Origin: Lingula anatina
Taxonomy: Eukaryota > Animalia > Brachiopoda
Direction: 5' to 3'
DNA length: 64,000 nucleotides
Assembly: GCA_051362555.1 (NCBI GenBank)
Contig: CM120647.1
Span: forward strand, 14,236,651-14,300,650
The notes beneath the pieces were generated by a model. It worked only from the letters and a program-made list of their open reading frames with translations, had not been told where the DNA came from and did no database searches. Position 1 is the first letter of the stretch. Every line of letters begins with the position of its first letter. Of this stretch, positions 9,319-64,000 are shown one piece after another. Position numbers and translations under genes: made by a program.

Positions 9319-9661
9319 TGTCAGTCTGAAAGAAAATAAGAGTGTATTTGCAGTGTGCTGTAGATTGTTTTTCTTCCTCTTCTTTCCTTTTAAAACTGCC
9401 ACTATTCACGGTGTACATACCCTAGGTTCTACATTTCCGTATTGCCAGCTCGATCTTGATTTCATATATAACCCATATCAGCAAACTAATAAAAGGAATC
9501 ACATCAAAAGACTTTTAACATGCTAGCTTTTACTGTGCTCTGACACTCAGGGTAGGTGTACATTATATCACTGAAATATAAAACGACATATTTCCATGAT
9601 CATATACACGTATGGACTTTTTTTTATCTGCCACTAGTTTAGAAACTGATCGTGGCTTTAA

Positions 9662-17473: not shown

Positions 17474-17591
17474 TGTGGATCTGAAAGAAAATGGGAGCGT
17501 ATAAATGGTGTGATGTAGCTTATTTTTCTTCCTCTTCTTTCCTTTTTTTATCTGCCACTAACTTAGAAACTGATCGTGGCTTTAATATCTC

Positions 17592-17643
<52 letters not shown>

Positions 17644-17700
17644 AATAGATATTTCTGAACAAAAATACAGGCAATACAGAAGTACAAATGATAATTCTAC

Positions 17701-21422: not shown

Positions 21423-21907
21423 TGTAGCTGCACTCAGTCAAATAAAGGAAGTCTCTAACTGGTTGAATTTTATTAAATTCAAACGTAAAACTGAAAGAAA
21501 ATAAAATAAAACAAAATAAATAACAGAACAAAAATTGTAGAGAAAAATACTGAAAACAAATTTAAATACAAAATAACCTAAAAATTGATAACAAATTTAC
21601 ACGAAGTACATACGAAAGTGTAAGAGAAAGGATAGACGGAAACGTTGCAAAGACCCAAAGCCGGAGAAGTTTACGTTACTTTAGCGTTGAAATAATTTGC
21701 CTTACCCCCGACCAAGTGTGCTAATCGTTATAAAAGGATAGATGGAAACGTTGAAATACCCAAAGCCAGAGAAGTTTACGTTATCGTTGAAATAATTACC
21801 TTTTCCTGCGACTGGGTGTGCTAAAATGGTGTCGTTAGAGTACCCGTATCGTTCTGTGTAAGAAAGTGAAGTGAGCAAAAAGAAATAGAGAGGAGGCCTT
21901 ATATACG
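21423..21907 (-). mobile_element. Truncated solitary LTR of the BEL/Pao family present at 60778+
   Basis: Near-identical reverse complement of 60997-61484, including the LTR 3' terminus GCAGCTACA. Confidence 0.9.
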
Positions 21908-42481: not shown

Positions 42482-45400
42482 TTCTCTCTTAATCATTATT
42501 GCTTAAAGGGACAAAAAAATAGGATTAAAAACGCCTTTTTAGTGCATGGATTGCTTCCTTTTTAACTTATCTAAGAACAATAGCTATGGGTAAAGCATAA
42601 AATGGCAGGTAAATGGCCTTAATCAATATCGAAAAAAAGAATCATATTCACCGTCCACTTTCGAACCCCGGGCGTCAGCCATCTTGACACAGTTTGAAAT
42701 AACGCGGCTTCTCGACTCAGATACGAGATGTAAACAATGCAGCCAGCATGTCTCACTCGACTGCAAAGGTGAGCGTGGGCGAGAAGAAGAGGAATTGTTC
42801 ACAGAATCTTTGCAGGTAAGCGAGTTAAAGTCACTATATGTGCTTTAGAATGGGAAGGTGGCAGTGGAAATAAAAATATCTAGCAGTGGAAGTTTAAAAG
42901 CGTAGATAACTGCTACATTTCCTCGGATAACGCACTCGCAGCTAGTCCCCAAACCACTCGCACTGCGTACTACTAGTTACATGAAGCGTGGTAGTGCACT
43001 TTGCCCCTGAGGTATATAGTTCTGTAAACCAGGAGGAATACCGGCGTTTTCTGCTCAATGTGGTCATCTACCAGTACTTGCAGACGAACCTCACACCATA
43101 TTCCCGCAGGGGAATCCCATGAGATATACAATGTAACTCGAGTACTGTACTAGCTGGGATAGAGGGTGTTCTTTGTACAACACGTAACTCATTTGTAAAT
43201 TTATTAATATTGTCAGATAAGATAAGATAAGAGTTTATTTAGCCAATTATAAAAATCGGAAATCATTTTATTTTTGGAGCAATATAAAGAGTAAAATAAT
43301 AGAATAATACAATAAATAAATAAATAAATAGATAAATATGAATATGATTATAAGAAATGAATATGATAACAAGGAATGAATTTTTTAGCCTTTCAGAGGA
43401 GGAACTGGTTGCTACACCCCTTCAAGCACAAAGGAGAGAACAGGTATGTTAATAATTTTAGCAATACACCAGGTAACAGGGGCGGATCCAGGATTATTTG
43501 AAGTGTTGGGGGGGGGGGGGGTCCGCGGATGCAAAGCCGACCCTCTAGTTGCCGTAGGGTTCTGGGCCCGCTTAAATTTTTTGCTACTTTAGAGGGCGAA
43601 CAGTGCCATTTGGTATGGTTTAGTACTATCGATTAGCTTGTCAAAATTCTAATTGCAAATGGGGAATATTAGTGTGATTTTTTTTACATCAGTTCTTTAA
43701 AACCATGTGTGATTATGTTATTTCTTCTTGTGGCCTTTATGATCTAATGCAGCTATAGCTATTTAAATTTAATTATCTTCTTCATCAAGAGCTGGTTATC
43801 ATGTAGTGATCATGCCCTCTAATTTGTTGATTTTTGTTTAAGAATAGTGCGGATTTGATTATATCAAGAGGTTTTTTTCTCATTAACCATTTTATGTAAT
43901 TTTACCATTACAGTGCCTCAAGTTATATCTGGAAAACTCATACCAGGAAGCACTCCAATCTTACAATACTGCCTCACTTCAATGTCGACGTGACAAGTTG
44001 TGCAAAAGACTGCTACAAAAAATGTGCACTGATGACCACATAATCCACCACCTTTTACCAAAACTGAGTGAACAGTTTTATATTATAATGCCCACGTATT
44101 TAAAGTGCCAAGACTGAGATCACCGAGAGCCTCAAGGACTTTTATTTTCTGGGCATTGTCAACTCTTCAATAATTTAGGAATTTTGCCAAATACATCCAA
44201 AGATTCAATTCTCATGCAATTCTTGAAAACTTTTTTAGAATATATTTCAAAAATTAAATGAGATTTATTGAAATTTAATTGAAATTCTATGAAGTTTCTA
44301 ATACAAATGAGAGGTCATACGAGATTTCCGTTTTTGCGAGAGCACTTGCGCACGATAGTCACTATCTCGAGTGACCAGCACTGCATACCAGAAAATTGAT
44401 GCAATTGTAATACCACTATGCAATAAAAGGAATATAAAATCCTTTTCAGATAAAGTATATCCTTCTCATCCAGTTAACTAAATGAAGATAATATAAATAA
44501 TTATCTTAGGTGCATTATAAATACCAACCCAAAATATGGTTATGAATTGAAATGATAACTTAAGTTATCTTAGGTGCATTACAAACATCAACCCATAAAT
44601 ATGGTTTTACATGTTTCTATGTAAACCAGGCACTGCCCCCCCCCCCCTTTTGCTGTGGAATAGGGGAGGTGGGTGGGCGTATGACCTCTCATTTGTATTA
44701 GAAACTTCATAGAATTTCAATTAAATTTCAATAAATCTCATTTAATTTTTGAATTCTATTTCGTTTCTATACAAATGAGGTCATACGAGATTCCCGTTTT
44801 ATGCGAGAGCATATGCGCACTTGCGCACATCTTCACAGTTCGAAGCTTGCTGGTCACGAGAGCAACTTGGCTCTGAACATAGTACTACATACCTTTTCTA
44901 ATTATTTAAAACTGCATCAGCAAACTCTTTCCCTTTAATGGGTTTATTATAGTACTTTGCAAAAGTCTTGCTTGAAGACCATCCAGCTGCTTTCAAAATA
45001 TCATCTACGGGAACTTTTGCTCTTTCTGCTGCCGACACTGCTGCAGCTCGGGTTGAATGAGCCTTAAATGATTCCTCTACACCTGCTTGGTGCATCAATA
45101 TCCGAATCCATCTGGATATTGTATCTTTTGAAACAGATGAGAAAGGTTTTCTATAACTAATAAAAAATTTTTCTTGTCCATTTCTCAATGGCTTTGTCCT
45201 TTTTAAATATTCCTTAACATATGTCAATGTACACAATCTCCTATCTGGAGGGTACGATTTAAATTGTATAGATATTGTACCAATTCCTGGTCTTGTTTGT
45301 TTCAAAGTTTCTTTTATGTTAAATAAAACATAGTTTTTGTGAAGTTCTAACTCTTGGAACTTCAGTAAATGCAACGTTTGTGCTCTCTGTGCAGATGTAA

Positions 45401-48400
45401 GAGACATAAGCATGATCAACTTCATTGTTAGATCTTTCAGTGATAACTGCCTTGCTGGTGACAGTTTCCTCATGTAATTTAAAACAATTGATACATCCCA
45501 CACTTGTTGATATCTGGATGCAGTAGGTCGAGTGTTAAAAACTCCTTTCAAAAACCTTACAATCAAAGGATGACTCCCCACTGTTGAAGCACCAATGGTA
45601 ATAAATGTTGATAATGCACATCTTGCAGTGTTTATAGCACTGTAACTTGAGCCATCTTCATAGAGATGTACTAAAAAATCTAGCACATTCGCTACAGTTG
45701 GTCTATAAAAATTGACCTTCCTTTGATTTGAAAACATTCTCCACTTTTTAATATAGACTGAATATTGGTTCTGAGTGGATTTTCTCCATGACTGAAAAAT
45801 GATTTCGATAGCTCTCTCTGAAATTCTATCTGATTTGAGAGTTTTCCGGATACTTTGCATGCCAACAGTTTCAAGTGATTTCCCATTGGGTGTGTCACCC
45901 CTTTCTGGTGTGGAAGTGATAATACTGTTGTTGTTGGCGGTAACAGAATAGGGATGTCTACTAACATTTCCATTAATGGAGTGAACCATGCTTGTGTCAA
46001 CCAAAAAGGTATCACAACTAAAGCATCTGCCTGATCTTCCCGAATCTTCTTGATTATCCTGGGAATCAGGCTGAAAGGAGGAAAAATGTATGAATACATA
46101 TTCTCCCAAGATATTGAAAAGGCATTAATGTATTTAGCACCAGGTTCTGGTTTCCAAGAAGCAAATACTTCTAATTTGCTATTCAATCTTGATGCAAATA
46201 GATCTATACATGGCATACCAAATATATCTGTCACTTTTTTAAATATATCAATATCTAGTGACCATTCAGTTCTAATATTCACATTCCTTGATTCCCAATC
46301 TGCCTCTACATTTAATATTCCAGGCAAATATTCAGCAGTAAGCCATATGTCATTTTCAATGCATTTATTCCATATGTCTGATACTATTTCATCACAAACT
46401 GGGGATTTCAAACCTCCCATATGTGTAATGTAGGCAACTGCTGTAGTATTATCAGATCTCAATAAAACTACCTTTCCTTTGATTTCTTGAATAAAGGCAT
46501 GTAAAGCCATTTTTATAGCAAGCAATTCAAATGCATTGATATTATCATGACAGAATAAAATTTCTTCTTCAGTAAAGAATCCACCAATTCTTGTATCTCT
46601 ACATATAGCTCCCCATGCTAAAGGAGTAGCATCTGATTGAATTTCAATCTGTGCATTGCCATGATAAATTTTATTTGTTGCAAACAATATATTTCTAGAC
46701 CACCAGTCTAGATCTACTTTCATGTCATCTGTAATATCCATTACAGCTTCATAATCATCTTTATTTTGTTTCAATGCATTAATTTTTGCTCTCTCTAGTT
46801 TTCTATAATGCAATGGCCCGTATAGGAGTCCAGGCAAACATGATATTAATATTCCTAATATTTTTGCAATTTCTCTAATAGATGCATCATCTCTTCTGAT
46901 TGAATCATCAATCATTTCTTTATAAGCTTGTTTCTTTTCATTGGTCAGTTGCACAGTCATATTTCTAGAGTTTATTTTAAATCCCAAAAATACAATTTCT
47001 TGAGTTGGGATTAATGCCGACTTTTCATCATGGATCAAAAATCCACAAGTTTTGAATAACTTAACCGTTTCTTGTACTGCCCATAGACATTCATTTTCTG
47101 AACTAGCTTGTATATAAATGTCATCTATGTAAGATATCATAATAATCCCTTTCCTTCTTAAGGATGCACATAATGGCTTTAATAATTTTGTGAATGCTCT
47201 TGGAGCATCTGAATAGCCATTTGGAAGGGCAGTATACATATATAATTTATTTCTCCATTGAAATTTGAGAAACTTCTGATGCTCTTTGTAAATTCTAACC
47301 ATATAATATGCATCTCGTAAATCTATGCGTGCCATGTATGCTTTATGACACAATAAATTCAAGACTGTCTTTAAAGTATCCATTTTAAACTTATGGTACT
47401 TCATAAATTTGTTGAAAGGTTTAAGATTTAATATCATTCTTCTTGTGCCATCTTTTTTAGGCCTAGTAAATATTGTATTGACAAATTGTCCTTCTTCATT
47501 TTGTGTTTCAACAATGACACCTTTACATAATAATCTTGAAACTTCAATATCAATCAATTTTTCCTCAGATTCTGTGAATCTTATTTCTCTTAATGGTGTC
47601 GTCTGTTTAGGATAATTATTATCCACAAATTCCAATCTTAAACCTCTAACAGTCTGTAACACCCAAGCATCAGATGTCAGCAATTCCCATTGGGAAATAA
47701 ACTTTGATATTCTACCAGCAATGTTATGTTGAGGACTTACCTCAAAAATTTTCTTCAACTTTTCCACATCTAATGATGCAGAGTTGCAGGGCAGTTTTTT
47801 AAATCTTGCTGCCTGTGATAGGTCCTAAATTGACCTCTACTGGTGCCACTTCTTGCACCTCTAATGCTCTTAGTAGGAAAACTTCTTCCCCTAGCTCGCA
47901 TGCTGGTTCTTCTTCCTCTTTCTCTGGGAGTCCCAGAATATGATGGACCAGTGTTTTTAAACACTTGGTGATTCATTTTGTTGACATCAGACATGTCACG
48001 GATTCTTTTTACTATTTCATCCCCAAAAAGCCTATTTGTATATGGGATGGAACTCGCACACAAATGTGAATATTGCTTATCAATGTGAGGTCTTAAAGCC
48101 TCTTTCCTTCTTGTGCAAAGTTCAAAGTTTGTGCAACCAAATGCTCGAAGTGCATTCGTAGCATCATTGATTATTTCTTCAAAATCTTCTTCTTCCAAAT
48201 TTTTAGTATCTGAATCCCATTTACTAATGAGTTTGTTCATTGCAACTGCCATTGAGGAAACGCCCTTTATCAAGCAATTTTGCACTCTCTGAAGCTTTAA
48301 ATCTTGTGTTTTAGCATCATGACTAATGCTAGGCCAAATTTCCTCGTTAATTGTAATTGGTTGCAAACCTTCACAGTTGGAAGGAGCTAAAATTTTCTCA

Positions 48401-51400
48401 AAAAGAGCTTTGGTCTCTTCTTCCATTGGTTTAGACCTCATGAAAGCTGTAATGTTGTCAGCTAAGGTTGTGTTAATTTCAGGCCCTTTGGGCTCAGATT
48501 TTTTAGCTGTTTCAGTCATTTTCTTCAAAACTTTCATTTTCTTTTCCGGAAGAAGTTCTTCCTCTATGTTTCTTTTACTTGTACTGGGATTTTCATTATG
48601 GGCAGTGTCTGCCATCTCGAACACTTGGTCTGAATCCCGAGCCTCACTAAGAACTGACGTGTCGTCATAAACTGGCTCTTCATAATACTCTTGAGGATAT
48701 TCATACCTTATTTCGTTTTTAAAATCCTCCATTTGCTTTTGAAGATTATCTTGCATATTCTTCATTGTGCCAGCTATAAAGTCAAGTGCTGCACTAATTT
48801 TATGATCCACAGTCGTGGCATTATCGGCACTAGTGGACGCGCCATTTTCATTTTCCACATGAACGCTACTCTGCGTCAGAGTTTGAATCTCTGTGAGAAA
48901 TTGTGGTGTGTCACCACTTTCTTTCGACTTCCCGTCGGACGATTTCTTGTGGCCATGCGTATTTTTCTTAACTTTTGGTCTACTTTCGACCTTTTCAGCC
49001 ATAATGTTAGAATATTCTTGAAAATTTTTGTGCCACAAATTTTCCACGTGCCGTGCTCGCTCGACAAAAAACCGGAAGTGAAGATGTGCGCAAGTGCGCA
49101 TATGCTCTCGCATAAAACGGGAATCTCGTATGACCTCATTTGTATAGAAACGAAATAGAATTTAATGTCGAACATGTTTTTCTAAGAACTAGCTCTTTAG
49201 TAAATTAACAAAGTACTTTCCAACTGTTATTATTATTATTAACATATTGTTATGTACAAAGCATAAGCTGCAGTATCAATGTAGCATTAACTGGGTAGAG
49301 ATTATGAATGAAATAAAAGTTTAAATATTGAAACATCTTTTATTTATATTTGGCAAAAATACAAGAATAAAGTTTGCTACATAAGTTTGGAATTTGGCCA
49401 AATCATCTTTATTATTACCTGTCACATGTAATGAATAAGACATACACAGATTTTGTAAGCTACAATGCATAATTATTTTCATACTTATTAATGCTTTCTT
49501 CATAAATAAGCCTTCCATTCAAGCATTCACAAACTTTCACATTGTGCAGTACACATTATAGTATGGTAACATTTTTGAGAGAGACTTATTAACAGTTAAG
49601 AGTCTGATGTACATGCAGACCCATGAGGATTGCAGATCAACAAATTATCCCCCTCTCTGTCAGTGTATTGACTCATGTGAGCTGACACAAAAATATCCAT
49701 GCAAAAGGGATGTGTCATGAGAAAGGACTAACCCCACTTACACAAACATAAAATTGTTTTATCGGAAGATATACACACATACTTTTCCAAGATGTGCAGG
49801 GAATAAATAGAAAGGTATAAATATTTCTTTAAAAAATACAGGCATGGCTTCCCTGCATGAATTCTAAATAATGGCTTTGTGGAGAAGTGAATACAGGCAC
49901 AAGTGTTCACTCAAACCATTTTTGTAGGTCTTAAAAGAAATGACATACAGTCACTTGCCAAATACAGAATTTTATGCTGGAACAAAGTCACAAAACTGCA
50001 ACTGGTGATCTTACAAAATCTGACAACACACTGGTTTAAAATCAAGTTGAAGTCACAATATGCCACCCATATTCCATAATACATTTAATGTCATCTAGAT
50101 TTAAAAAGTAAATGCTGGACCAAAATGGTTTATTCTCAATATCAGGCATATGACTTAGTTTTGGGAGGAAAGACCACCTTGATTTCCAATCTGTCTGCAT
50201 TATAGCATACATGTCAGTGCTAGATGGTTTGAAGTCAGCAGATTATGCTTTGTCACATTGGCAAGATGAGTTCACTGAATATATCCTGTAAGCAGCACTC
50301 GAAAGTCAGGAAAAGTCTCTCACTATCCAACTTGTCCCCGCTTTGGACCCTCAAGAAAAGTTCCTCTTTTTTTGGTGTTCCTCTTCCATGTAAAAAACTC
50401 TTCTTCAGGACATCATACTGGCAGTTGCTCATAACCTTAAGGTCTAAAAAAGCAAATCAATAATAATAATAATTTATTAAGATTGCAACCCAGTGGGTTG
50501 AAGTTGTACATAGTGTTAAGAAAATTATAATGAAAATAAAGTGAATATTTGCTTGAATAAAACTGAGTTAAAAGACTGCTAATTGAACTTTAAAATTATT
50601 GTACTTAGGATAAAAGACAACATAATACTATTGGAAATTTAAAAGTGCATATGGAATAAAACAGCATCGGAATCTGTCGGTCTTAAATTGTGGCACTTTG
50701 TTACTATTGTTTGATCTTAAAAGATGATTGGATTGCTCAATAAAGATGTGATTCAGTTTGTCAGAGGATTCAGTTATTTTGTAAAAGAAAGTTTTGCACA
50801 TCTCTTCGTTTATCTAAAGTACACATATTTGCCGGGTTCAGGGTTTCATTATAGTGTAGGTCAGGGAAAATAATCTTCAAAGCACGAGTTTGGTCAGTCT
50901 AAGAGTTTGCATTGCTCTATAGTTAGGCCTGGATGCCACACAGGGCAGGCATATTCTAGAATCGAGTGCACAATACTTTGGTAAAGCTTAGCTCGTTTCA
51001 GTTGATGGAAGAAATAGAGTCTTGCATTATGTTTACATTATATGTTGCCAATTTGGAAAAAAAAATTGATAAAAGAGAAATCATGCACCTATAATGCCTA
51101 ATATATGGTGAGTGAATATCAGCTTATTAAAATTCTTCTTACTCTAAAGACATGTTTTAGTCCCATGTTGGATCATCAGGATCCTTTAATTCCCTCTTCT
51201 TCAGCATCTTCCTCCTCTTCCATCTGCACTTCTTCCAGTTCAGGCAACCCATAGGAAAAAGTTACATTGACACTGCAACCAAAAAAAAAGCAACAGTACA
51301 TAAAATTAAGATAATCAAGTTTGAGAAAAATCATGTAAAAACATAAATGAAATAAGTATAAAACTCAACTGAAATAAGTATAAATGCCATTTGTCTCAAC

Positions 51401-53806
51401 ATGATCACCTTAAATTATCTAGACTGTCATCTTCAACTGCACTAGTATTAACTACAACTTGATTTTGAAGTTTCTTGATCACTTCATATTGGATTAATCT
51501 CCGAAATACTGGTTGGACGCTAATGTAAAAAATTGTATGATCAAAATTATTACTCTGGACTATTTATCCATTTACAGATGTACCAAACATACACATGCAA
51601 TATCCCCTTTCTGATTTATTTATTTATTTATTTTTAATGTAAAAAGGAAACTTAATTGCCTTTAAAATATAAAATCAAAATACTACTCAAAGATATTTTC
51701 AATTATAGTTGACATGCCATTTAAAACTAAGTTAAACTTAGATACAATATCAGCTTCTGCACATTCATTTTGGGATTAAGATGCCTAAAGAAATAGCATC
51801 TTGGACATACGTCTTATTTACTGTGTTTTGTATGCCCAGATGTAAGAGGCACAAGAAATGTGCCCTCGGTAAGTCAACAATTCGCCCCGGCCATGGTAAT
51901 GTACATGTAATGAAACCAGTATCTCCCACCATGTCCATTTCCATTTAAACTTTCTTTGCTGTATAAACTTACCCAAACCCTGTCAGAGTCGACATATTAG
52001 CAACACTTGTAATTCCTGTTATCGATACTATACTCATATATAGTTACAATTTCATGGCATATTTTGACAGACGAGCCTGACAATCGTTAAGAAATACAAC
52101 GAACACACGTAAATAAACATTAATCTCTGTGCTTAATAAATATTTTTACTGGTGTCTTATCTCAAACATTATTGTAAATGGTACTCACAAATCCAGTAAA
52201 TACTTCGAGGCCAGGTGATCCTTCGTATCCATGGCCATCCATGCAAGCAGGTTTTCATCTGCCTTCTTCCTCGCCGGTGTTTATTGTTTGCCTGTCGTAC
52301 ATTTGCTGATACACTGTTTTACGCGCATTTTATTTTCTGGTGTTGACTTTTGTAAAGGGTGTTTCCTTTTTCTTTTTGTTATCTTTCTTCCCTTCTTCGA
52401 TGGAGTCTCAACTAATTCAGCCTCCTGTTCCATGTGCTTTCCCGGCAGCTTGAACTAGTTTTAACTAGGTCGCAATACGAGAATCTCGCGATATCCGGAA
52501 GTCTAGAGAGCTCAATAATGAAAATGGAGGTGGTTGTTGGTAAACCTCCGCTTAAGCGGAGGTTTTCTTTTTATTGTATTTTCCAAAAATGTTACAGAGC
52601 GATGGCGAGTGCCGGGAATGATAGATTAAAGGTTGGTAAATCGCAGAAAAGTACTGTTAACCTCGGGATAAATCGGGATAAATCAATTTTGGCGCGAAAA
52701 TCCTCTTTTGTGTCCTTTTAAGCTAATTACTCAACTGATTCTTCGTCAGAAAAGTTCATCTACTTTGTAAATAAGCCATTCAATCGACCAATAAGTTAAT
52801 TTATATTAATTTATTCATTTAACTATATATCTTTTCATTCATACAGTAAATCATTTCTGTTATCACTCACCAGACACCGTTTGGAACCTTGTCGATCTCT
52901 CGTGATGCAAGCGCCGAAAATACCGGTGAAGAAAAACTGAAAAAAGAGGGCTATATTGGAGATAGAATTTTGCACAACGTTTGGTCTTAGTCTAAGAAAA
53001 TAAACATTGTCGACCTCTATAAATCAACTAAACCTCTAGCCATACTTTCTAGGCATCAAACTTCAGCACAAGTATCCAACAGCCAAGGAACCGAGAAGAG
53101 CAGGTACGTTAGGAAATACAAACAGTGCTACATGTACGAAATACATGTTCTACCAATAAATCCTTAGACATTCTACAAAGAGAAAACACATCTTGTCTTG
53201 CATAAATGTCTGGTTGATAATCTTCCAATAGCTATGTATGCTGATATAAACGGCGTATTTCAATTGCCTTAATTAGACCAGTTATTAGTCTTGAGAAGAT
53301 TCATTATGTAAATATTAATAAAAATGTACATTCCATTTTTGTCGTTTTTTTTTTTTTTTTTCATCTCGTTATTATGTCATGTGAAGTATTTGGAGGGTAG
53401 CTCAGACAAGTCTTGGTTAAGTTTGGCATCTGCATTCTTCAAAAGTATAAAAACGTAGAATAAATTAAGGTTTAAGTAAAAAAAAAATTATAAAACTTAC
53501 CCAGGCACCGCACCATATCGGAGCACTCACCATAGTCAAGGTGCGAGATAGACCAGAAGCATAACTGTTGAACGAGTACGAAGTGTAGAACGAGTTGTAG
53601 CTGCTATAATGATAATATCTGTAGGCATTTAAAGTCAAGGAGCTTTGGTCCGTTTCAAAATGGTTCAGATAGAGGTCGGCCGCGCCACACCCTATTATAA
53701 GGAGTCCCAGCGCAATCTGAAATCCACCCAAACATTGGAGGGACCCGTAAGGAAAACGGTCTTGGGGCTCCCCCGCCGGAACCACTTGGTTGTGGCCCAC
53801 GTGCAT
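39368..53806 (-). CDS. MS4A/CD20-like four-TM protein, copy 4 (287 aa; intron 3 expanded to ~10.9 kb by nested transposons)
   Basis: Exons 53501-53806, 52871-52936, 41898-41987, 40174-40314, 39368-39628; all GT-AG, phase 0, open frame; poly-Q/poly-P tail. Confidence 0.85.
39654..39823. mobile_element. Fold-back MITE (170 bp, ~65 bp inverted arms, TA flanks)
   Basis: ta|GAGAGCATTCACAT...ATGTGAATGCTCTC|ta; absent from paralogous introns. Confidence 0.85.
41033..41566. mobile_element. HINE/pearl-like (Helentron-associated) non-autonomous element
   Basis: Subterminal inverted repeat ACCTCCGCCAAGG / CCTTGGCGGAGGT, ~120 bp internal tandem units (gatccggatcaccaccaaaaact), (GACA)n/(AAAC)n tract and a 3' palindrome. 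Confidence 0.7.
44678..44836. repeat. DIRS internal complementary region (ICR), circle-junction template
   Basis: Joins copies of both element ends at TTTTTGAA|TTCTATTT (44753/44754). Confidence 0.9.
44898..46109 (-). CDS. DIRS tyrosine recombinase (N-terminal SAM-like plus catalytic domain)
   Basis: SWRKSTQNQY, SYSAINTARCALS, HPLIVRFLKG, SAQRAQTL (Arg), KAHSTR (HxxR), GWSSSKTFAKYY (Tyr); overlaps the 3' end of pol in another frame. Confidence 0.93.
   Translation of the reverse strand: MGEYVFIHFSSFQPDSQDNQEDSGRSGRCFSCDTFLVDTSMVHSINGNVSRHPYSVTANNNSIITSTPERGDTPNGKSLETVGMQSIRKTLKSDRISERAIEIIFQSWRKSTQNQYSVYIKKWRMFSNQRKVNFYRPTVANVLDFLVHLYEDGSSYSAINTARCALSTFITIGASTVGSHPLIVRFLKGVFNTRPTASRYQQVWDVSIVLNYMRKLSPARQLSLKDLTMKLIMLMSLTSAQRAQTLHLLKFQELELHKNYVLFNIKETLKQTRPGIGTISIQFKSYPPDRRLCTLTYVKEYLKRTKPLRNGQEKFFISYRKPFSSVSKDTISRWIRILMHQAGVEESFKAHSTRAAAVSAAERAKVPVDDILKAAGWSSSKTFAKYYNKPIKGKEFADAVLNN
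45692..47767 (-). CDS. pol: DIRS pol: reverse transcriptase, RNase H and DNA adenine methyltransferase-like domain
   Basis: RMILNLK, IDLRDAY, ALPNG, YIDD (RT); SDA..WG, INAFEL, SDNTTAVAY, NVEADWESR (RH); IDLFASRLN, YIFPPF (MT). The frame starts at GTG without an ATG. Confidence 0.95.
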   Translation of the reverse strand: MEKLKKIFEVSPQHNIAGRISKFISQWELLTSDAWVLQTVRGLRLEFVDNNYPKQTTPLREIRFTESEEKLIDIEVSRLLCKGVIVETQNEEGQFVNTIFTRPKKDGTRRMILNLKPFNKFMKYHKFKMDTLKTVLNLLCHKAYMARIDLRDAYYMVRIYKEHQKFLKFQWRNKLYMYTALPNGYSDAPRAFTKLLKPLCASLRRKGIIMISYIDDIYIQASSENECLWAVQETVKLFKTCGFLIHDEKSALIPTQEIVFLGFKINSRNMTVQLTNEKKQAYKEMIDDSIRRDDASIREIAKILGILISCLPGLLYGPLHYRKLERAKINALKQNKDDYEAVMDITDDMKVDLDWWSRNILFATNKIYHGNAQIEIQSDATPLAWGAICRDTRIGGFFTEEEILFCHDNINAFELLAIKMALHAFIQEIKGKVVLLRSDNTTAVAYITHMGGLKSPVCDEIVSDIWNKCIENDIWLTAEYLPGILNVEADWESRNVNIRTEWSLDIDIFKKVTDIFGMPCIDLFASRLNSKLEVFASWKPEPGAKYINAFSISWENMYSYIFPPFSLIPRIIKKIREDQADALVVIPFWLTQAWFTPLMEMLVDIPILLPPTTTVLSLPHQKGVTHPMGNHLKLLACKVSGKLSNQIEFQRELSKSFFSHGENPLRTNIQSILKSGECFQIKGRSIFIDQL
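47770..49002 (-). CDS. gag: DIRS gag-like ORF1 (410 aa from MAEKVES)
   Basis: Open frame upstream of pol with PSNCEGLQPITINEEIW, DLKLQRVQ, RRKEALRP, LFGDE and an Arg/Gly-rich C-terminus, typical of DIRS ORF1. Confidence 0.88.
   Translation of the reverse strand: MAEKVESRPKVKKNTHGHKKSSDGKSKESGDTPQFLTEIQTLTQSSVHVENENGASTSADNATTVDHKISAALDFIAGTMKNMQDNLQKQMEDFKNEIRYEYPQEYYEEPVYDDTSVLSEARDSDQVFEMADTAHNENPSTSKRNIEEELLPEKKMKVLKKMTETAKKSEPKGPEINTTLADNITAFMRSKPMEEETKALFEKILAPSNCEGLQPITINEEIWPSISHDAKTQDLKLQRVQNCLIKGVSSMAVAMNKLISKWDSDTKNLEEEDFEEIINDATNALRAFGCTNFELCTRRKEALRPHIDKQYSHLCASSIPYTNRLFGDEIVKRIRDMSDVNKMNHQVFKNTGPSYSGTPRERGRRTSMRARGRSFPTKSIRGARSGTSRGQFRTYHRQQDLKNCPATLHH
50460..51035 (-). mobile_element. 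3' fragment of a CR1/L2-group LINE inside the Kolobok
   Basis: Minus frame LYQSIVHSILEYACPVWHPGLT; ends in AATAAA plus (TTA)n at ~50460-50480. Confidence 0.7.
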
Positions 53807-54960
53807 TGTGGGTCTGAAAGAAAATGGTGGTGTATTAACGGTGTGCTGTAGATATTTTATTGTTTATTTTCTTGATTCTTTTTTAACTGCCATTATTTAC
53901 GGTGAAAATTATATACACGTATGGACTTAATTGCCACTACCTTAGAAAATGATCGATGCCCCAATCTCTCTCTCTCTCTCTCTCTCTCTCCACAAGTATA
54001 TTGGTGTATAAACAAAAAACACAGGTAATACATATGTGTAAGTGCAAATTAAATAATGCATATAAATAGATAAAAAGATTATGATATAAACGAAAAAATA
54101 TAAATGAGATTTATAATGACAAATTACACCTACCCTGTTTTCGTCCGCAAAATTTTTTTTAAATCCAAAGACTATTCAGAATACTACTACTAATACACTA
54201 TACGCTCAAAGTTTTTTTTTTTTTTTTTTTTTTTTTCCCACATAAAATTGCACCTACGGCTTACATGCGACTTAAATAAACGACCGGAAAGATGCTTAAA
54301 TGAAATCCAACGCCGCACTGTTTTGGTTACTTTTGTTCTGATAGCGCGTCAGACACAATGCGAAATCCGGGGTTCGATAAAACCATCGACAGCAAGGGCA
54401 GGTATGGAAAAGCGAAAGTAATTGTCGATATCACACCTGAACTTAACGTTTGAGTTTAGATAGTTTTATCTTTCGTTTAATTTTTGAAATATCTGATACA
54501 CGTTTACACTTAAGATATGACCCATTAATTTATACCCCTTAAACAAAAATCGACTGTAAAGAAAGGTACGTTGGGTTGGCTAGGGGTATTTCAGTTTGAT
54601 TCCGCCATTTATTATTTTATTTTTAAAAAAAATTTTTTGCATAGCTGATATATTGTTGTCAATCCTACAATGTCCATTTTACATCATTTGTAACATCAAA
54701 GAGCGACTATTACTACGTAAAATTCGATCAAACACAGTTTTATCAGGAGTCACCACACCCCAACCAATACATGTCCCATACAACCTCTTATGCAGTTACG
54801 CTTTTTTTTTTCTGGAACCAATTAACTGAAAAATAATACGTGTGGGTATAATAAAACGTTTACCTTAATTCTTCTTCTGTTGCTGAAAGAGAGACAGAGA
54901 AAGAGAGAGAGAGGGAGAGGAGGAGAGGGGCGTAGTAGTAGAGATGTCATCTTGACTTAC

Positions 54961-55137
54961 CTGAGTTTTTTCAAATTTGATCGTGTAGCCGGTTTTCCTC
55001 TGCGTCTTAACCGTCCTCACCGCCTAGCCAGCCAGTCGGCGCCCTATCTTCACAGAATGGTTTCAGGTAATGCACGACACTTTAAAACTAATTCCCAGTT
55101 ATGAGCACACATGAATGTTGCGCCACTTAGTTATAAA
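54961..55137 (-). promoter_or_regulatory. Putative TATA box and non-coding exon 1 of copy 4
   Basis: TTTATAA at 55131-55137; donor CAG|gtaagt at 54961. Confidence 0.6.
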
Positions 55138-55740
55138 GCTTGTCCTCAGCCGTGTCCTCAGTATGCAGCCTCGACCGATTCATAAGACATGACCTAAATC
55201 TTTGTTGAATCAATAACTGTCGCTTCGTTGGTAAACATGACACAAGGGCTATACTGTTTAGTCAAAAGGACTTACCTGTAGAGATATGATAAAAATGTTG
55301 TTCTCCAGATTTGTATCCACTAATCACTCAATTACATATTCCATGTTTTGCAATAATAAACCCGAGGTATGGACTGCACATAATGCAGTGCACGCATTGT
55401 AATGAACTATGGTTTTTAGAGGTTACAGAAAGAAGTGCACGTGCACAAAACCTGAGTGGCACCAAGTGAATATAGGGGTAACGGTATAATGGCAAAGTCA
55501 AATAGGAAAAAATCCTTGTGAGCTGCTGTGGGATCAGTGGCGCAATACCTATGCGTACCACATTATGTTAGAGTTATCGTTAACATTTTACATTTTATTA
55601 ATTTCGTTCAATTAAAAGAACTGTATATTTTTAACACTTAGAGCGTGTTAATGAAAGGTAAGAAAAACAGGAGGTGGATGGTAAGTAATCCAGGGAGCCG
55701 GGTCTTTAGTTAAAGAAACAGCGGTCTTTATCGCTATGTT

Positions 55741-55816
<76 letters not shown>

Positions 55817-56605
55817 GTAAATAAATAAGTACCGACACGTTTCATGTTTATTTATTTTTAGTTATATACATAAATTATCCGCATAGTTGAGCTCTCTGAA
55901 TGCCACACACACATACACATATATATCTGGATTACAAAATACAGCTTTGTGTATATTTTACGCCATGCATGAAAATAAGTCATTGATTCACCTGCTTTAT
56001 CTGCACAAGTTAATGCGGCTTGTTTTCCGCGCCAGGGGAACGACTGTTTCTCAAACACGCGTCCAGCAACGTGGCCCGCAAAAGAGCTGTATAGGGCGAA
56101 ATCCATTCTCCTATTCCAGTGTATAACCACGACGTGAGCGGTTGCCACGTCATTTAGAGGTGATTTCCTCGGCTTCAAGAAGCTTTTTCGCTTCGTATTG
56201 AGTGCGATCGAACGCACACGATAGTTTATCACCCCTAGCTGCTCGAGGAAGCGTGACATTCAATCAATCTTATTACATTCAGCGGGAGTCCCTGAGGAGT
56301 TGGATCAATCTATGTAGGACGATAGCTACATTTGGAAAGCACCCATAGACGTGCTTGGCTGCGCTGCATGTTAAAATGTATAAACTGAAAAAAAAGAAGT
56401 TGCTATGTACATGTACTAGTGATTTGGTTATGCAGACGGCATAGAAGAGTTCTGATTTGATAATGGAGTTAATGTTGCCATAACAACTGTCAGAAGCCTG
56501 CTACTGCCTGGTTTCAGTGGGCGGTGCACTACCATAATCAGTGTCACTATCTTCATCTTCTTATTTCTGCTTTTCAGTCAGTGCACTCGGAGACCGCTTA
56601 TAGTG

Positions 56606-56936
56606 TCAATAGAAGTTTTCTCCTCGGGGAAAAGCCTCAGGGGGTTTTGATTTATCTTCAGTCCAGTTACCTCCAGCAACAGGTTGCTGGTAGTTTGGAT
56701 TCTGGTAGGAGGGCCCTCCGGCTGTTTGGTAAGGGGTATATGGACCTGGCTGTTGGTATCCCATAGGGGCAGTGGGTGACATGTAGGGTTGAGACTGTGG
56801 TGGAAGCTGTTGTTGCTGTTGTTGGGCGGTACTTATCATTGGATAGTAGGGCTGACCCGGTACACTGCCCGGTATATAGAGAACTTGCTGAAATGACAAA
56901 ACACCAATACCACAGTGTACAATGTAATACATCTCT

Positions 56937-56975
<39 letters not shown>

Positions 56976-59900
56976 GTGTGTTTGTGTCTATTTAACTATA
57001 AAATATACTGAATGAAAAAAAATTGTAAAAATTTCAACTTAAATTAATGGTTTTATAATAAAAAGGCCAAAAATACCGTTTCTTGCTGGTCTATGGGCGA
57101 GCAGCAACAGCAGACGGAGGCGGACACGATGGCTACTATCCACTCAATGAAGCCCAGCCCTCCCGCTGCCACAAAAAACACGTACTGTAAAATATTGGCA
57201 TTGGAACTGATCTGTAAATAAATGCATGGGTATCAAAATGTTACTTTCAACTGATAATTGAACGTGAAAAACCCGTGATTAAGATGCTCTGTATAATGTG
57301 GCACCCCTACCGCCATTATATTCATTGCAACAAGGGTACCCATGGTTTTAATTTTACTATCACATAACAACAGCGAAACCGATCTTTGTGTAAATTGGGG
57401 CTGTGAATGGTAGAGCATTGACCTATTTAACGTGATATAATCTTATTGAAATCCCTAAAGACTAATTATTATTTTGATGCGTCTTCAGAGTGAGGGGTAT
57501 ATTTTATAGTCTACCGGTACCATTGTATAGGCATGCTGGCAGTCGTCAACGGAAGCCTTTACGCATAGCTATGCATCCAAATACTGTCGAGACTATCTTT
57601 GGGGACTATGACCACCCATTTATGATTAAGCACGATAGTGCTACTGCATGTACAGGTAATGCAACAGTAGGGTGGTCATATGCCAACCAGACTCAGCTTA
57701 ACACCCAGATTGGAACGTCATTAAGAATGTACGGGATAACCACGGAAACGGATAACTGAAGGATAATCCTGCTGACAAAAATGACCCCATACTATCTATG
57801 CACCATATGTGGAACGCCAGCATTCAGCAAACGTTACATAAATTTTGACTCCACCCAAAGACGCGCCAGGTGCGTCAACTAGTCCAGGGGATAAAGTACA
57901 AAATACTAAAATGTGGCTTTGATGATTTTACTATATGGTTAAGTCATTAATTGGTTGTATAATCAGTAACTTTTTGTGTAAAGAATGATTTAATGCGTTG
58001 AAATAAGAACACTGGATCACGGCATGATCCCGATATCCCTTTATCAAGTATAGTATAGTATAGTATAGTATAGTATAGTATAGTATAGTATAGTATAGTA
58101 TAGTATAGTATAGTATAGTATAGTATAGTATAGTAAAGCGGGTTTTAGTTTTTGAAATTGATTAAATGATCGATATTTTGAATCTCTCGACAATTAGAGA
58201 GCTCTCGACAAATAGAAATGAAAGTATAAACAATTAGGCTACTAAGCTTAGAGGAATATGGGTTTCATTTAAAATAATGCAGATATTTGACAGATCTCAA
58301 GTGACTCTGGCTATTCAATTGCTAATAAAGGTAGAACTGTCGTTTAGTGCTCATTCCCAATGAAACTATGGGTCTACGTAAGTCGATCCAACTCCATGGG
58401 GACCCTTGCTGATTGCAGTCAGTAACAGATTAACACTCCTCCTTTTCTTTCCGACGTACTATTATAATCACCTGCTTTTCCGCCTTTCACTCAACGTCCC
58501 CAAGAAGAGGTTTATTTACTTAACGTGTGACTAACATCTTACAGAGCATTCTGAACATCGGACTAAGAGATCCGCCGACGAATATGGCCGACTACTTGGA
58601 TACTTGTGTAATCCCCGCGGGGAATGTATTTAGTGTCTATAATCGGGAATAAAGCGGCAAGCTTTTAGTTGGTCAGCATATTTGATCTGCAGATCTGTTA
58701 CAGTTAGTCTGCGCTGTTCTAAATGTGCCCTCTGCTATCAGGACTTCTAAATTAGAAAGCAAAATTAATATTTTTGTAAGGGACCAGTAACGCACACTGT
58801 GGTCGGAGTAAAAAAAACATGCTGTCACTTTGGGTCATACTTACTATGAAAAAAGGTGAAACAATCACTAACCCCATCGCAGTAGGACCGAAGATTATGG
58901 CAGTGAGGATTGAAAACGTCTGGAAAGAGTTCCGCTGAAAGAGAAGTGAAAGTGAAAGTAGTATACATAATATATCATAAATTTGCTTCAGTATAGAGAC
59001 CTGTTTGTCCCGAGCGTAATATATCTCAACGATACAACTGCATTTGTATGTTTTCGGAGATATCTTCCGTCATGTCATAACGTCATAAGAGCTCGTTTCT
59101 GTAAAAGTTCTCCATACCCGAGGGTAGGTAATTAATTGCCTGTCATTAGGGTAGGGGGAGGGGAGGGGGGAGGTGAGGGCCGTATTGCAAGATAACTGTC
59201 TTATGTAAAGACCAGGCAAAAGAATGTGTTGCCGTGACCGTACCGTTGGAAACTCAAAAACTTTCTTGGAATGGATATGTTGTATTTCGCTGCAGAAAAA
59301 CTAACTACTTCTGAAAACAAGCAAAAACTGACATAAACTTTATGGACTAAAACTGAATTAAACATAAACCAATATGGTTCGGGGAAACCAGTGTCGCTGA
59401 ACTGAAATGTCAGGGCGGGAGTTCAACTTTATACCTGTACGTGTTTCATGTGACACATGAACACATCTCACTACAATACTCTGATCTACTCTCTAACTTG
59501 TAATTACTGCGCGTGTTGCAGTTACAGAATGGCAATGCCCTTATCAAAATGAAACATTTGCAGCTACGAGTTTACAGAATTTGCAAGTACAATTTTATTG
59601 CTGCTAGTTTGAAGCCATATTGCAGCACATTTAATCCAAATTCAAAATAAGGAATTAATTTGCACCAATATTGCAGGAAATTTGCTGCAAATTCGCCGCG
59701 AATTTACAGTAGACCTGATATTTTGCTAAGGGCAGGCTCTCAAAACCTATCATAACAGATGTGCTGCCTGAATAATGAGAAACAATGTTTATTGACATTC
59801 CATAGGTAGACGTTTAAATTACCACTGCTTCTTAATAAGTAACGTTCACTTTGGAAAGATTCGTCTCTCTCTCTCTCTCTTTCTCCTTCTACCTTTCTCT

Positions 59901-60729
59901 TTCTTAATCATTATTGCCTAGGCTTATTACTCGTGCGACTAAATTGCCAGCTACGCCCTAAATAAGTCGGTCAATCAAAGGATAAGTTAATTTATACTAA
60001 AATACTCATTTATCTATTTATTAATTTGTCTCTGTTATCACTCACCAGGCATCGTTTGTAACTTTGTCGATTTTTTGTGATGCAAGCTCCGAAAATACCG
60101 GTAAAGAAAAACTGAAAATTAAAAAAGAGACAGATATTTGTATAACATTTGTTTTAGCAAAGAAAAACCGCTATCAATCAACTAAACACTAGTCATTTTT
60201 TTCTGGGCATCAAAATTTAGGACATGTGTCCAACAGCTAAGGAGCCGAGAAGAGCAGGTATGTTATTAAATACAAGCACTATTATAAGTAAATTTTAGAA
60301 AATACGTTTTGTCTTTCATAAAATCCTGGTAGATAATCTTTTTTTCACTTGCTATGTATACCTTATATTTTTAAATTATATAATTAGTCTCGTCGGCATA
60401 TCATGTAAAGTATTGGGAGGGAAGCTGGTATTATTAAAAATTAGAGAATAAAAACTTACCCAGGCACCGCACCATATCGGAGCACTGACCACGGTCAAGA
60501 TGTGACCTATCTCATTATAAGTCATGTTGCGATGATAATACATGTTGGTATTGGAAGTGAAAGCGTTTTGGCCAACGGCAAAATAGTTGAGATGGAGGTC
60601 GGCCGCGCCACACCCTATTATAAGGAGTCCCAAAGCAATCTGGAATCCACCCAAACATTTGAGGGCACCGTAAGGAAAACGGTCTGGAGGCTGACCCGTC
60701 TGAAACAACTGGGTATGACTTGCGTCCAT
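56606..60729 (-). CDS. MS4A/CD20-like four-TM protein, copy 5 (280 aa; near-identical to copy 3)
   Basis: Exons 60460-60729, 60046-60111, 58845-58934, 57077-57211, 56606-56887; open frame ending GENFY*. Exon 1 is displaced beyond the window by the BEL insertion. Confidence 0.85.
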
Positions 60730-60777
60730 TGTGGGTCTGAAAGACAATAGATATTTCTGAACAAAAATACAGGCAGT

Positions 60778-61484
60778 TGTAACTGCCCGCGACATTTTAT
60801 TTTATTTTATTTATTTATTTATTTCTCATTATTCATTCGAAGTACATTTTCCGTTCTTTCTCTGTTTACTCTTTCTCTTTCTCTCTTTCTCTCTCTCTCT
60901 CTCTACTAATTATAACGTTACAGGCCACCGCACTTACCTAACCGCACCGTCACATGCCTGTACCACACCCTGCACTGAACAGTTTTCATTCCACAACGTA
61001 TATAAGGCCTCCTCTCTATTTCTTTTTGCTCACTTCACTTTCTTACACAGAACGATACGGGTACTCTAACGACACCATTTTTAGCACACCCAGTCGGAGG
61101 AAAAGGTAACTATTTCAACGATAACGTAAACTTCTCTGGCTTTGGGTATTTCAACGTTTCTATCTATCCTTTTATAACGATATTAGCACACTTGGTCGGG
61201 GGTAAGGCAAATTATTTCAACGCTAAAGTAACGTAAACTTCTCCGGCTTTGGGTCTTTGCAACGTTTCCGTCTATCCTTTCTCTTACACTTTCGTATGTA
61301 CTTCGTGTAAATTTGTTATCAATTTTTAGGTTATTTTGTATCTAAATTTGTTTTCAGTATTTTTCGCTACAATTTTTGTTCTGTTATTTATTTTGTTTTA
61401 TTTTATTTTCTTTCAGTTTTACGTTTGAATTTAATAAAATTCAACCAGTTAGAGACTTCCTTTATTTGACTGAGTGCAGCTACA
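60778..61484 (+). repeat. 5' LTR (707 bp) of the BEL/Pao element
   Basis: TGTAACTGC...GCAGCTACA terminal inverted repeat; TATATAAG 60999-61006, Inr-like TCACTT ~61030-61035, AATAAA ~61433. The 3' boundary is supported by the copy at 21423. Confidence 0.85.
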
Positions 61485-61617
61485 GTAAAACTTTTCCTCC
61501 GACTGGGTGTGCTAAAATGGTGTCGTTAGAGTACCCGTATCGTTCTGTGTAAGAAAGTGAAGTGAGACAGAGGAAAGTGTAAGAAGGACTCAACGAAAAC
61601 AGAAAGTGACAAAAAGA

Positions 61618-64000
61618 ATGGCAGAATATTTAGAAGCAAGAAAACGTGAAAGAGAGCATATGACCAGTGCCAAACGCTCTACCGGTGATTCTGCTACAAC
61701 CGAGAGTCGAGATCAGGCCGAGCCTTGCGATGGTGGGAGTCACGTTGACACTTCACAGAATACCAGCGCCGCTACACCTGCGTCGTCGCTACAGGATATG
61801 AACACTCTAGTTAAAGCTCTGACCGATTCCATGAACCTTAACAGATTGCCGATACCAGAACCCAGCGTTTTTACTGGAGATCCACTACAGTACTTAGAAT
61901 GGAAGACATCCTTTCAGATGCTCATAGAACGAAAAGGTATACCCCCTGAAGAAAGGATCTTCTACTTAAAGAAGTATGTGGGATATCCAGCACGTAAAGC
62001 ACTTGAAGGGTTTTTCTACGGCAACAGCCCCTCTGCGTTTCACAGCGCATGGAAAATTCTGGATGAGCGTTACGGACATCCTTTCCTAGTACAGAAAGCC
62101 TTCCGAGACAAACTAGACACGTGGCCTAAGATCCCAACCAACGACCCTGTAGCTCTGAGGGACTTCGGTGATTTTCTACAAGCCTGCCATGATGCAATTC
62201 CACACGTGCCTAATCTGCGCATTTTAAACGATTGTACAGAAAACCAGAAGCTCATCGCCAAACTACCAGAGTGGGTGACAGTGAGGTGGAACCGTGAAGT
62301 GACGCAGTGTATTGACATTACAGGTGAATACCCTCCCTTTCAGATGTTTGTGGAGTTTGTGACCAAGGAAGCCAGAATTGCCTGTAACCCGATTTCGTCG
62401 ATACACGCCCTCAACGCTACGAAGACTGCTGCTGCTGCTCACAAGGTCAAAGGTAATGCCAACGTTCTTACCACTACCTCCAGTCCTCCTGTGTATGTTT
62501 GCAGTTACTGTCAGAAAGGACATTTCATTTCACAGTGTGAAAATTTTCGATCTCTGACACTTGATCACAAACGCACTTTTATTCGTGAGAACAATCTATG
62601 TTACGGGTGTTTACGTCACGGCCATCACAACAACACTTGTAAAAGGAAACTAAGATGCGAAAAATGCCAGGGAAGACATCCCACGTGTTTACATGATGAC
62701 AACTTTAGGTTAGCTCGCCCACAACCTACAACAGAGTACCAGGTAGCAAATTCTCTTCAGATTGACCAAGGTAAAGATGACAGCACCTCCATGATAGTTC
62801 CGGTGTGGGTTTCCAGTAGGGAAAATCCGTCAAAGGAAATCCTGACGTATGCTCTCTTGGACACACAGAGCGACACTTCCTTTATTCTACAAGAGACGGC
62901 TACAGCATTGCAGATTACCGGACAGCCCGCACGTTTATCGTTGTCAACAATGACCGCCTCAAACACAGTTATTAACAGTTCCCGGATTTCCAGTTTACAA
63001 GTAAGAGCCTTCAACTCATCTGAAATTGTACCCATCAATGCCTGTTTCACCAGAGATTTCATACCAGCAAATCGATCTCACATTGCAGTGACGGAAACAG
63101 TTAGTAAGTGGCCACATTTACAGCAACTTAGTGCCGAGTTACCACCCCTACAGTCATGTGAGGTAGGACTTTTGATCGGGTACAACTGTCCGATGGCTCT
63201 AGCTCCCAGAAAGGTCTTAATTGGAAAAGAAAATCAGCCTTTTGCAGTCAGGACTCTGCTTGGTTGGAGCGTGGTGGGATACTCTACTCCTCCAAGTGCC
63301 AATGTCAACGTTGTCATTGCTCATCGTACAGCCGTCAAAGAACTACCTCAGTGTTCTTCAAAAGAAGTCATCAGAGTAATAGAAAAGGACTTCGCTCATG
63401 ACAAAGGCAGCGTTGCTGAAATCTCCAAATCACCACGGTTGACTGGACCCTCCTTCCCTAGGCAACGGCAGGTGAACCTGGAACGTGTCACTACAGAACT
63501 ACAGTTGGGAGATCCAGAGGTGAGAGCCTTTTCATTGTGTACTGATACGTCTACAATGCCTAATATCCTTGAACTCTTCACGAGATTATCTTGTTCGTGG
63601 AAAACCGTGTCTGAGATGGGGAGGATCCAACGAATTGCAAATGGTGTAAATGGAACACAGCCTCTGACTATTGAAGAAAGAGGAAAGGCAGAAAAATCTC
63701 TTGTTATGCTTACCCAACGCGATGCATTTCCAGACGCATTCAGTGCCCTCGATGCAGCTACCACGTTACTTAAGACGCATCAGCTTCACCCCCAAGATCT
63801 GGTTCTTGAAGATGGTCTTCTTCGAGACGGCGGCCGATTACGGAAAGCAGGTTTTCCAACGCCATTAAAACGTCCATCCATCCTACCAAAGAATCATCAT
63901 GTTACGCGACTGATTCTTGATTATGCTCACACGGACTCCCAACACCAGGGCAGAGGTATGACTCTCAACAAGCTTCGTTCCCTTGGTTTTTGGATTGTAG
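61618..64000 (+). CDS. BEL/Pao Gag-protease-integrase polyprotein (open to the window end, so absent from the ORF track)
   Basis: ATG at 61618 and no stop through 64000: PEPSVFTGDPLQYLEW, LDERYGHPF (gag); CSYC..H..C, CYGC..GH..C, CEKC..HPTCLH; YALLDTQSDTSFI (protease, Asp at 62860); LLIG, TLLGW; DPEV, DGLLRDGGRL, H..QHQG...GFWIV (integrase Zn-finger start). Confidence 0.9.
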   Translation, partial: MAEYLEARKREREHMTSAKRSTGDSATTESRDQAEPCDGGSHVDTSQNTSAATPASSLQDMNTLVKALTDSMNLNRLPIPEPSVFTGDPLQYLEWKTSFQMLIERKGIPPEERIFYLKKYVGYPARKALEGFFYGNSPSAFHSAWKILDERYGHPFLVQKAFRDKLDTWPKIPTNDPVALRDFGDFLQACHDAIPHVPNLRILNDCTENQKLIAKLPEWVTVRWNREVTQCIDITGEYPPFQMFVEFVTKEARIACNPISSIHALNATKTAAAAHKVKGNANVLTTTSSPPVYVCSYCQKGHFISQCENFRSLTLDHKRTFIRENNLCYGCLRHGHHNNTCKRKLRCEKCQGRHPTCLHDDNFRLARPQPTTEYQVANSLQIDQGKDDSTSMIVPVWVSSRENPSKEILTYALLDTQSDTSFILQETATALQITGQPARLSLSTMTASNTVINSSRISSLQVRAFNSSEIVPINACFTRDFIPANRSHIAVTETVSKWPHLQQLSAELPPLQSCEVGLLIGYNCPMALAPRKVLIGKENQPFAVRTLLGWSVVGYSTPPSANVNVVIAHRTAVKELPQCSSKEVIRVIEKDFAHDKGSVAEISKSPRLTGPSFPRQRQVNLERVTTELQLGDPEVRAFSLCTDTSTMPNILELFTRLSCSWKTVSEMGRIQRIANGVNGTQPLTIEERGKAEKSLVMLTQRDAFPDAFSALDAATTLLKTHQLHPQDLVLEDGLLRDGGRLRKAGFPTPLKRPSILPKNHHVTRLILDYAHTDSQHQGRGMTLNKLRSLGFWIV

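Follow-up and report, generated by a model that had tools for sequence, protein, structure and literature searches.

The closest described systems are Tf1 and Tf2 of Schizosaccharomyces pombe and the Tf1/sushi group, in which no tRNA is used and the element's own RNA pairs with its primer binding site (PBS). According to passages of PMC7175516, the first 11 nucleotides of the Tf1 RNA pair with the PBS, and base 11 is followed by the RNase H cleavage site. The primer site is afterwards copied into single-stranded DNA at the 3' end of the cDNA, as stated in an excerpt of PMC11042837. Tf1 belongs to the Ty3/gypsy superfamily, and the 11 nt at the start of its RNA that serve as primer are uninterrupted in the DNA. 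Outside this group, self-priming was predicted from complementarity between LTR and PBS for the plant element Tcn1 (Ty3/gypsy) and for TAR/Houba/Osr-1 (Ty1/copia), and thus in more than one superfamily; these and Tf1/sushi are the only predicted self-primers named in the available passages of PMC6317226, where Tcn1 and TAR/Houba/Osr-1 were found as contiguous matches of at least 10 bp.

For the Belpaoviridae, ICTV gives a PBS of 18 nt for tRNA-Arg or tRNA-Gly and calls the replication poorly understood (PMC8742986). In the available portions of their main texts, PMC554778, PMC6238403 and PMC3118150 mention neither PBS nor tRNA, and those of PMC3601003 and PMC8220671 hold nothing further on the question. 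A description of self-priming or of a spliced primer in BEL/Pao was not found in the portions of the literature covered, and subscription papers, Repbase Reports and GyDB lay outside this search.

Here, a BEL/Pao element of Lingula anatina is described, which lies in a window of 64 kb (the whole stretch of DNA that was analysed). As in Tf1, the element's own RNA is complementary to a site adjacent to the LTR, over 82 nt after predicted splicing and over 11–13 nt in nine of ten relatives, which also resemble Tf1 in this length of about 11 nt. In contrast to the contiguous first 11 nt of Tf1, the predicted primer is interrupted by a GT-AG intron and occupies the end of a longer exon 1. We consider it probable, at roughly three in four, that the family of this element, a BEL/Pao family of likely Sinbad/Sailor lineage, primes itself in the manner of Tf1, by means of a primer that splicing creates. 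The complementarity, the signals resembling splice sites and the covariation of both over the relatives are present in the sequences themselves, and splicing, start site, cleavage and priming are predictions.

Identity and coding content of the element

The element had been assigned to BEL/Pao in a previous, sequence-only reading of this DNA. This assignment is borne out by the homology of its gag and protease, which are encoded by one frame:

61618..63999, plus strand: open gag-protease frame with DUF1759, Cys-His boxes and protease, running off the window

The frame matched PF03564 (DUF1759) and 603 homologous polyproteins (best 57–58%, bivalve); PF05380 is also present in most of the homologues among the matches listed. 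A gag with DUF1759 and Cys-His boxes, the protease and LTRs with TG...CA ends (here 60778–61484; the 3' LTR lies beyond the window) are shared with the canonical Belpaoviridae (BEL, Pao, Tas), and the full-length relatives show the order PR-RT-RH-IN. The proteins are thus those of BEL/Pao and not those of Ty3/gypsy chromoviruses of the Tf1/sushi group.

The gag-protease frame is 54% identical to protein P0004 and was aligned to its residues 367–939 and then to about 1475–1680. At about 63408–63411 it jumps into the pre-integrase region. RT and RNase H, both present in the full-length relatives, are missing, and this copy is therefore non-autonomous. It is a defective, internally deleted copy of a BEL/Pao family rather than a member of a different family.

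In run X2, one contig spans the RT/RNase H deletion (63408–63411) with a depth similar to that of gag, and in run X4 contigs depart from the window sequence exactly at these positions. Possibly the RT/RNase H-deleted form has been amplified as a non-autonomous family and coexists with undeleted copies.

The lineage is likely Sinbad/Sailor. A conserved RT motif of the closest relatives was found at nine places in supplement 6 of PMC3118150, and the six families looked up among these matches were all labelled Sinbad. The label is indirect, as the comparison was made via the RT motif of the relatives, the copy itself having no RT, and the tree described below holds no named reference. In the available part of PMC6238403, the name Sailor is used for the Sinbad group, with Sinbad, Sparrow and Surcouf as its divisions.

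LTR boundaries and the inverted repeat

Two LTR copies and the TATA box define the 5' part of the element:

60778..61484, plus strand: 5' LTR, 707 bp, TG...CA ends, 8/9 terminal inverted repeat
60999..61006, plus strand: TATA box TATATAAG, 30 nt before the start of the left arm
21423..21907, minus strand: second LTR copy, solo and 5'-truncated, 98.4%; donor, intron, acceptor and LTR end kept

The LTR's 3' end at 61484 is fixed independently, since the match to the second LTR copy ends exactly there. A host paralogue (17644–17673), which matches as far as 60775, and the terminal inverted repeat place the 5' end at about 60778. The solo LTR (21907–21423, minus strand) begins 2 nt before the TATA box, the greater part of U3 being absent, and a clear target-site duplication is not seen.

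The sequence-only reading had noted that a TGG-type PBS is absent from the LTR edge, and indeed the first TGG lies 19 nt past the LTR. The 18-nt PBS of canonical Belpaoviridae, matching a tRNA 3' end, is missing in the Lingula element and its clade. No tRNA was detected by ARAGORN in the window. Directly behind the LTR, six bases (GTAAAA, 61485–61490) separate its end from the right arm of an inverted repeat, which starts at 61491, and this gap is also as it had been reported.

The inverted repeat of about 76 nt with one indel in an A run, likewise reported before, was recovered base for base. The left arm (61029–61105, 77 nt) is the reverse complement of the right arm (61491–61566, 76 nt) at 76 of 76 bases, with one extra T in a T run at about 61078. 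This arm pair is the longest inverted repeat within 52000–64000 (blastn E about 1e-31). The second LTR copy, whose arm agrees with the right arm at 75 of 76 bases, does not have the extra T. In all four DNA runs, most of the depth likewise lacks it; contigs of either arm can map to this place in these runs, and depth was never taken as copy number. The TATA box at 60999 and the Inr-like TCA near the start of the arm (61030–61032) were both found where they had been claimed, and from the usual spacing between a TATA box and its start site a transcription start at 61029–61032 is predicted.

A predicted intron in the LTR

Signals resembling those of a GT-AG intron were detected within R, and the features that follow from them are:

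61029..61105, plus strand: predicted exon 1 of R, equal to the left arm, ending at a GT donor (best of 37 GT sites in the LTR)
61106..61416, plus strand: predicted GT-AG intron in R, 311 nt, 68% A+T, 46% T
61183..61280, plus strand: diverged second copy (80%) of 61081–61172 inside the intron, with GC where the GT donor stood
61417..61422, plus strand: start of exon 2 (six bases, TTTTAC), complementary to the six post-LTR bases; predicted 3' end of the primer
61433..61438, plus strand: AATAAA poly(A) signal, 16 nt past the acceptor
61485..61566, plus strand: predicted PBS, GTAAAA and right arm, an 82-nt complement of the spliced 5' end; core of 11 nt at 61485–61495

The left arm stops precisely at the donor context GAAAAG/GTAACT (61105/61106). 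The acceptor context TTTCAG/TTTTAC (61416/61417) closes a T-rich stretch and ranks first among the 20 AG sites of the LTR, all ranks being those of one simple, crude in-house score. The six bases TTTTAC, with which exon 2 would begin, are complementary to GTAAAA, the six bases between the LTR end and the right arm. Removal of the 311-nt intron (309 nt in the second LTR copy) would thus give a pairing of 82 bp with one bulge, which reaches from the predicted start site to the first post-LTR base and ends there. The calculated duplex energy is -155.7 kcal/mol for the spliced and -147.2 kcal/mol for the unspliced form.

The sequence-only reading had explained the repeat differently, namely by an unspliced 5' end that folds onto the post-LTR region, so that the 76-bp duplex would be the self-primer of the family. 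At -147 kcal/mol such a duplex would form without splicing, and its 3' end would point toward U5. However, it stops short of the LTR end and leaves 6 nt unpaired ahead of it, which exon 2 fills exactly, and it leaves unexplained why the arm ends at a splice donor. Together with its absence from the relatives (see below), this makes priming by the unspliced duplex very improbable. The more general part of that proposal, self-priming, is supported in kind by the complementarity between the element's own predicted RNA and the post-LTR site.

RNA reads on 60760–62000 numbered 10, 8, 22 and 0 in four runs from three studies (40 in total), none of them joining across the intron and without a pile-up at the start site; they bear neither on splicing nor on the start site, because they are too few and the mapping skipped 61374–61420 including the acceptor. 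An intron-less joint was likewise missing from the DNA runs, which carries no weight on account of the same skipped positions. Inside the intron, the repeat at 61183–61207 differs from the end of the left arm mostly by C>T and A>G changes, which by eye would keep G-U pairs with the right arm. The GC at the donor position of this repeat is a possible alternative donor.

Junction and PBS in related elements

The relatives comprise 23 BEL-type loci (L001–L008, L033–L047) from one metagenome contig and from contigs of metagenome-assembled genomes; scans of viral contigs gave no relatives. Ten loci of the near group have a readable LTR and post-LTR region (L001, L003, L004, L005, L007, L008, L034, L035, L036 and L047), and eight loci were dropped as unreadable (L002, L006, L039, L040, L042, L043, L045 and L046). 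L002 lacks the middle of its LTR, and its post-LTR region begins with GTAAA. L045 (about 6860–7200, reverse complement) is a degraded relative with the same donor-intron-acceptor layout in its 3' LTR, and no 5' LTR end was found for it. Four matches to a DNA pattern were discarded, since their contexts resembled chance matches. The animal BEL/Pao loci L001–L008 and L033–L047 sit in prokaryote metagenome-assembled genomes, with 13 Pao-peptidase matches in G003, and are likely due to contamination with host DNA.

The long inverted arm occurs in none of the ten readable relatives. Conservation of the arm had been suggested as a check by the sequence-only reading, which had itself named absence from relatives as evidence against its proposal, and the long unspliced duplex is not supported as the mechanism of the family. 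A plain, unspliced complement between LTR and PBS, which was looked for before the split one, did not turn up in the relatives; the longest unspliced match measured 7–9 nt in nine relatives and at most 7 nt in L008 at the four ends tried.

A perfect complement was found only across a GT-AG junction of the locus' own LTR, with 11–13 nt in nine of the ten relatives; the LTR ends were set by two LTR copies in L004, L035 and L047 and were read by eye, with the idea already in mind, in the other seven. It comprises 11 nt at offset 0 in L001, L003, L004, L005 and L035, 11 nt at other offsets in L034 (1), L008 (3) and L007 (5), and 13 nt at offset 0 in L036, and L047 showed 10 of 11 positions. L008 failed at the first four candidate ends; it passed only when ten CA ends were scanned. 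The nine perfect cases represent eight distinct words, because L003 and L004 share one and are not independent. The junction divides the complement at points between 3+8 and 9+2, and the introns measure 76–625 nt; acceptors ranked 1–11 and donors 1–6 by the crude score.

A random 11-mer would fit any GT-AG junction of one LTR with a probability of 0.0007–0.0055 at offset 0 and of 0.004–0.025 at offsets 0–6. When LTRs and PBSs were swapped between loci, 1 of 108 pairs reached 11 nt, versus 9 of 11 own pairs in the same matrix, the two misses being L047 and the tRNA-type control L033. What is conserved is a complement of about 11 nt that forms only across the predicted splice junction of the LTR, and the 76-nt arm is a family-specific extension. 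A test for contiguous matches of at least 10 bp would miss split primers such as those of the relatives, whose unspliced matches end at 7–9 nt.

Distant BEL loci in the same assemblies as the near relatives carry TGG-type sites. Such a site right after a CA-like end was present in L033, L037, L038, L041 and L044 (27–33% to P0004), with the two-LTR check made for L033 and the other four read by eye, no LTR pair being found for them. In the RT-RNase H tree, the junction-type elements are split from the TGG-type BEL loci with a support of 0.966.

These comparisons bear also on the idea that the primer is an RNA of the host, either an internal piece of a tRNA or a different small RNA, and that the pairing of junction and PBS serves regulation, dimerisation or the control of splicing. 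ICTV has the Belpaoviridae as tRNA-primed (PMC8742986), and half-tRNA primers exist in Ty1/copia elements according to passages of PMC6317226. Against this, the post-LTR 11-mers vary among the relatives and each tracks its own junction, which disfavours a fixed host RNA. The pairing also stops at the LTR edge or close to it, which is where the end of a primer has to lie, and Rfam gave no match to 60700–61800. Hence, a host RNA is a highly unlikely primer.

Proposed mechanism of self-priming

In the preferred reading, self-priming by a primer built through splicing, the transcript would begin near 61030 and the spliceosome would remove the cap-proximal intron (61106–61416). The exon-exon joint would then anneal to 61485 onward. 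A cut after TTTTAC, probably by the element's RNase H in analogy to Tf1, would create a 3' OH at the LTR edge, from which minus-strand strong-stop DNA would copy U5 and the short remainder of R. As this DNA would extend over no more than U5 and a small part of exon 2, the 3' LTR has to supply U3, exon 1 and the intron. They would be copied from an unspliced 3' LTR, whereby the intron would be inherited; its inheritance thus demands that the 3' LTR copy of the RNA is unspliced.

Several observations favour this model. The arm ends at the top-ranked donor, the first bases of exon 2, as given by the top-ranked acceptor, close the gap of 6 nt exactly, and the pairing ends at the LTR edge. Against a strict rule stand the offsets of 3 in L008 and 5 in L007 and the mismatch in L047. 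Against the model itself, the same intron would have to be spliced at the 5' end and yet be kept at the 3' end, and the Lingula copy is without an RT of its own.

The demand for two splicing fates would disappear if the spliced joint primed in trans, provided by short spliced LTR transcripts (from solo LTRs or as RNAs ending at the poly(A) site of the LTR) and not by fold-back of the same genomic RNA. With an AATAAA 16 nt past the acceptor (22–38 nt in L001, L003, L004 and L005), a short capped, spliced and polyadenylated RNA could form, and the solo LTR at 21907–21423 retains all signals. However, Tf1 works in cis, according to passages of PMC7175516, a trans primer would have to be co-packaged, and the poly(A) site of the 5' LTR normally has to be read through. 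Priming in trans is therefore regarded as improbable, although less so than priming by the unspliced duplex or by a host RNA.

Origin of the long arm

Self-priming with a spliced primer might also explain how the long arm arose. During plus-strand synthesis, RT would copy the whole spliced primer up to the cap, and the resulting overhang would displace the older leader. Run-off of RT at the cap would yield the complement of the spliced 5' end from the LTR edge to the start site, as is seen, and the far end of the long arm lies at TATA+30. The arm would then be a reverse-transcribed copy of the whole spliced primer in place of an older leader, and thus a fossil and not a requirement.

A sister form in the DNA runs, about 87% identical in the first part of gag, departs from the window sequence at 61490–61493 and rejoins it at 61561–61563 after a different, longer leader. 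One of its contigs has about 130 other bases in between, and eight positions before the point of rejoining resemble the window copy. In run X5, the post-LTR continuations listed represent only the sister form, without the long arm. The sister form fits a replacement of an older leader, and a template switch at the DNA level fits almost as well; the origin from a copied primer is therefore favoured only slightly above an even chance.

In the alternative, template switching would have perfected a short inverted repeat at the DNA level, and the arm would be without function and might even make the RNA a target of dsRNA silencing. The short likeness at both ends of the replaced leader could be used by such a switch, and the right arm proper (61491–61566) complements contiguous genomic DNA. 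That the far end coincides with the predicted start site is expected from run-off of RT and is not needed by a DNA switch, and an origin at the DNA level appears rather unlikely.

In its widest form, the proposal would cover a whole widespread lineage of animal LTR retrotransposons. These would prime with a primer that is assembled by the spliceosome and absent from their DNA, splicing the 5' copy of the intron and keeping the 3' copy, and the leader of the Lingula element would contain a reverse-transcribed copy of the entire spliced primer, a fossil marking both joint and cap. This combined view is put forward tentatively and given a little less than an even chance.

Implications

If true, LTR-type reverse transcription could begin in a third way, with a primer made by splicing, besides tRNAs and contiguous self-priming, and retrotransposition would be linked to the splicing machinery of the host. 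The introns at the 5' and 3' ends of an RNA, although identical, would need opposite splicing fates. Such a primer would also explain the failure of tRNA-based PBS searches on Sinbad/Sailor elements. The complementarity of junction and PBS offers a simple genome-wide test and an annotation rule. In the Lingula element, the 82-nt arm predicts both cap site and primer end with single-base precision, so that the element lends itself to mapping them.

Other features of the window

A host segment occurs in five diverged copies (73–93%) at 78–1343, 8033–9338, 16243–17673, 52768–53825 and 59501–60775, which are probably a tandem gene family; Pfam gave nothing for two frames tried from these copies. 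The BEL element directly adjoins the last of them (59501–60775). On the minus strand, a set of three overlapping frames at 44898–49161 matched RT (PF00078) and tyrosine recombinase (PF00589), and we take it to be a DIRS-like retrotransposon. Finally, a frame of 191 amino acids with EF-hand domains is located at 23698–24276 on the minus strand.
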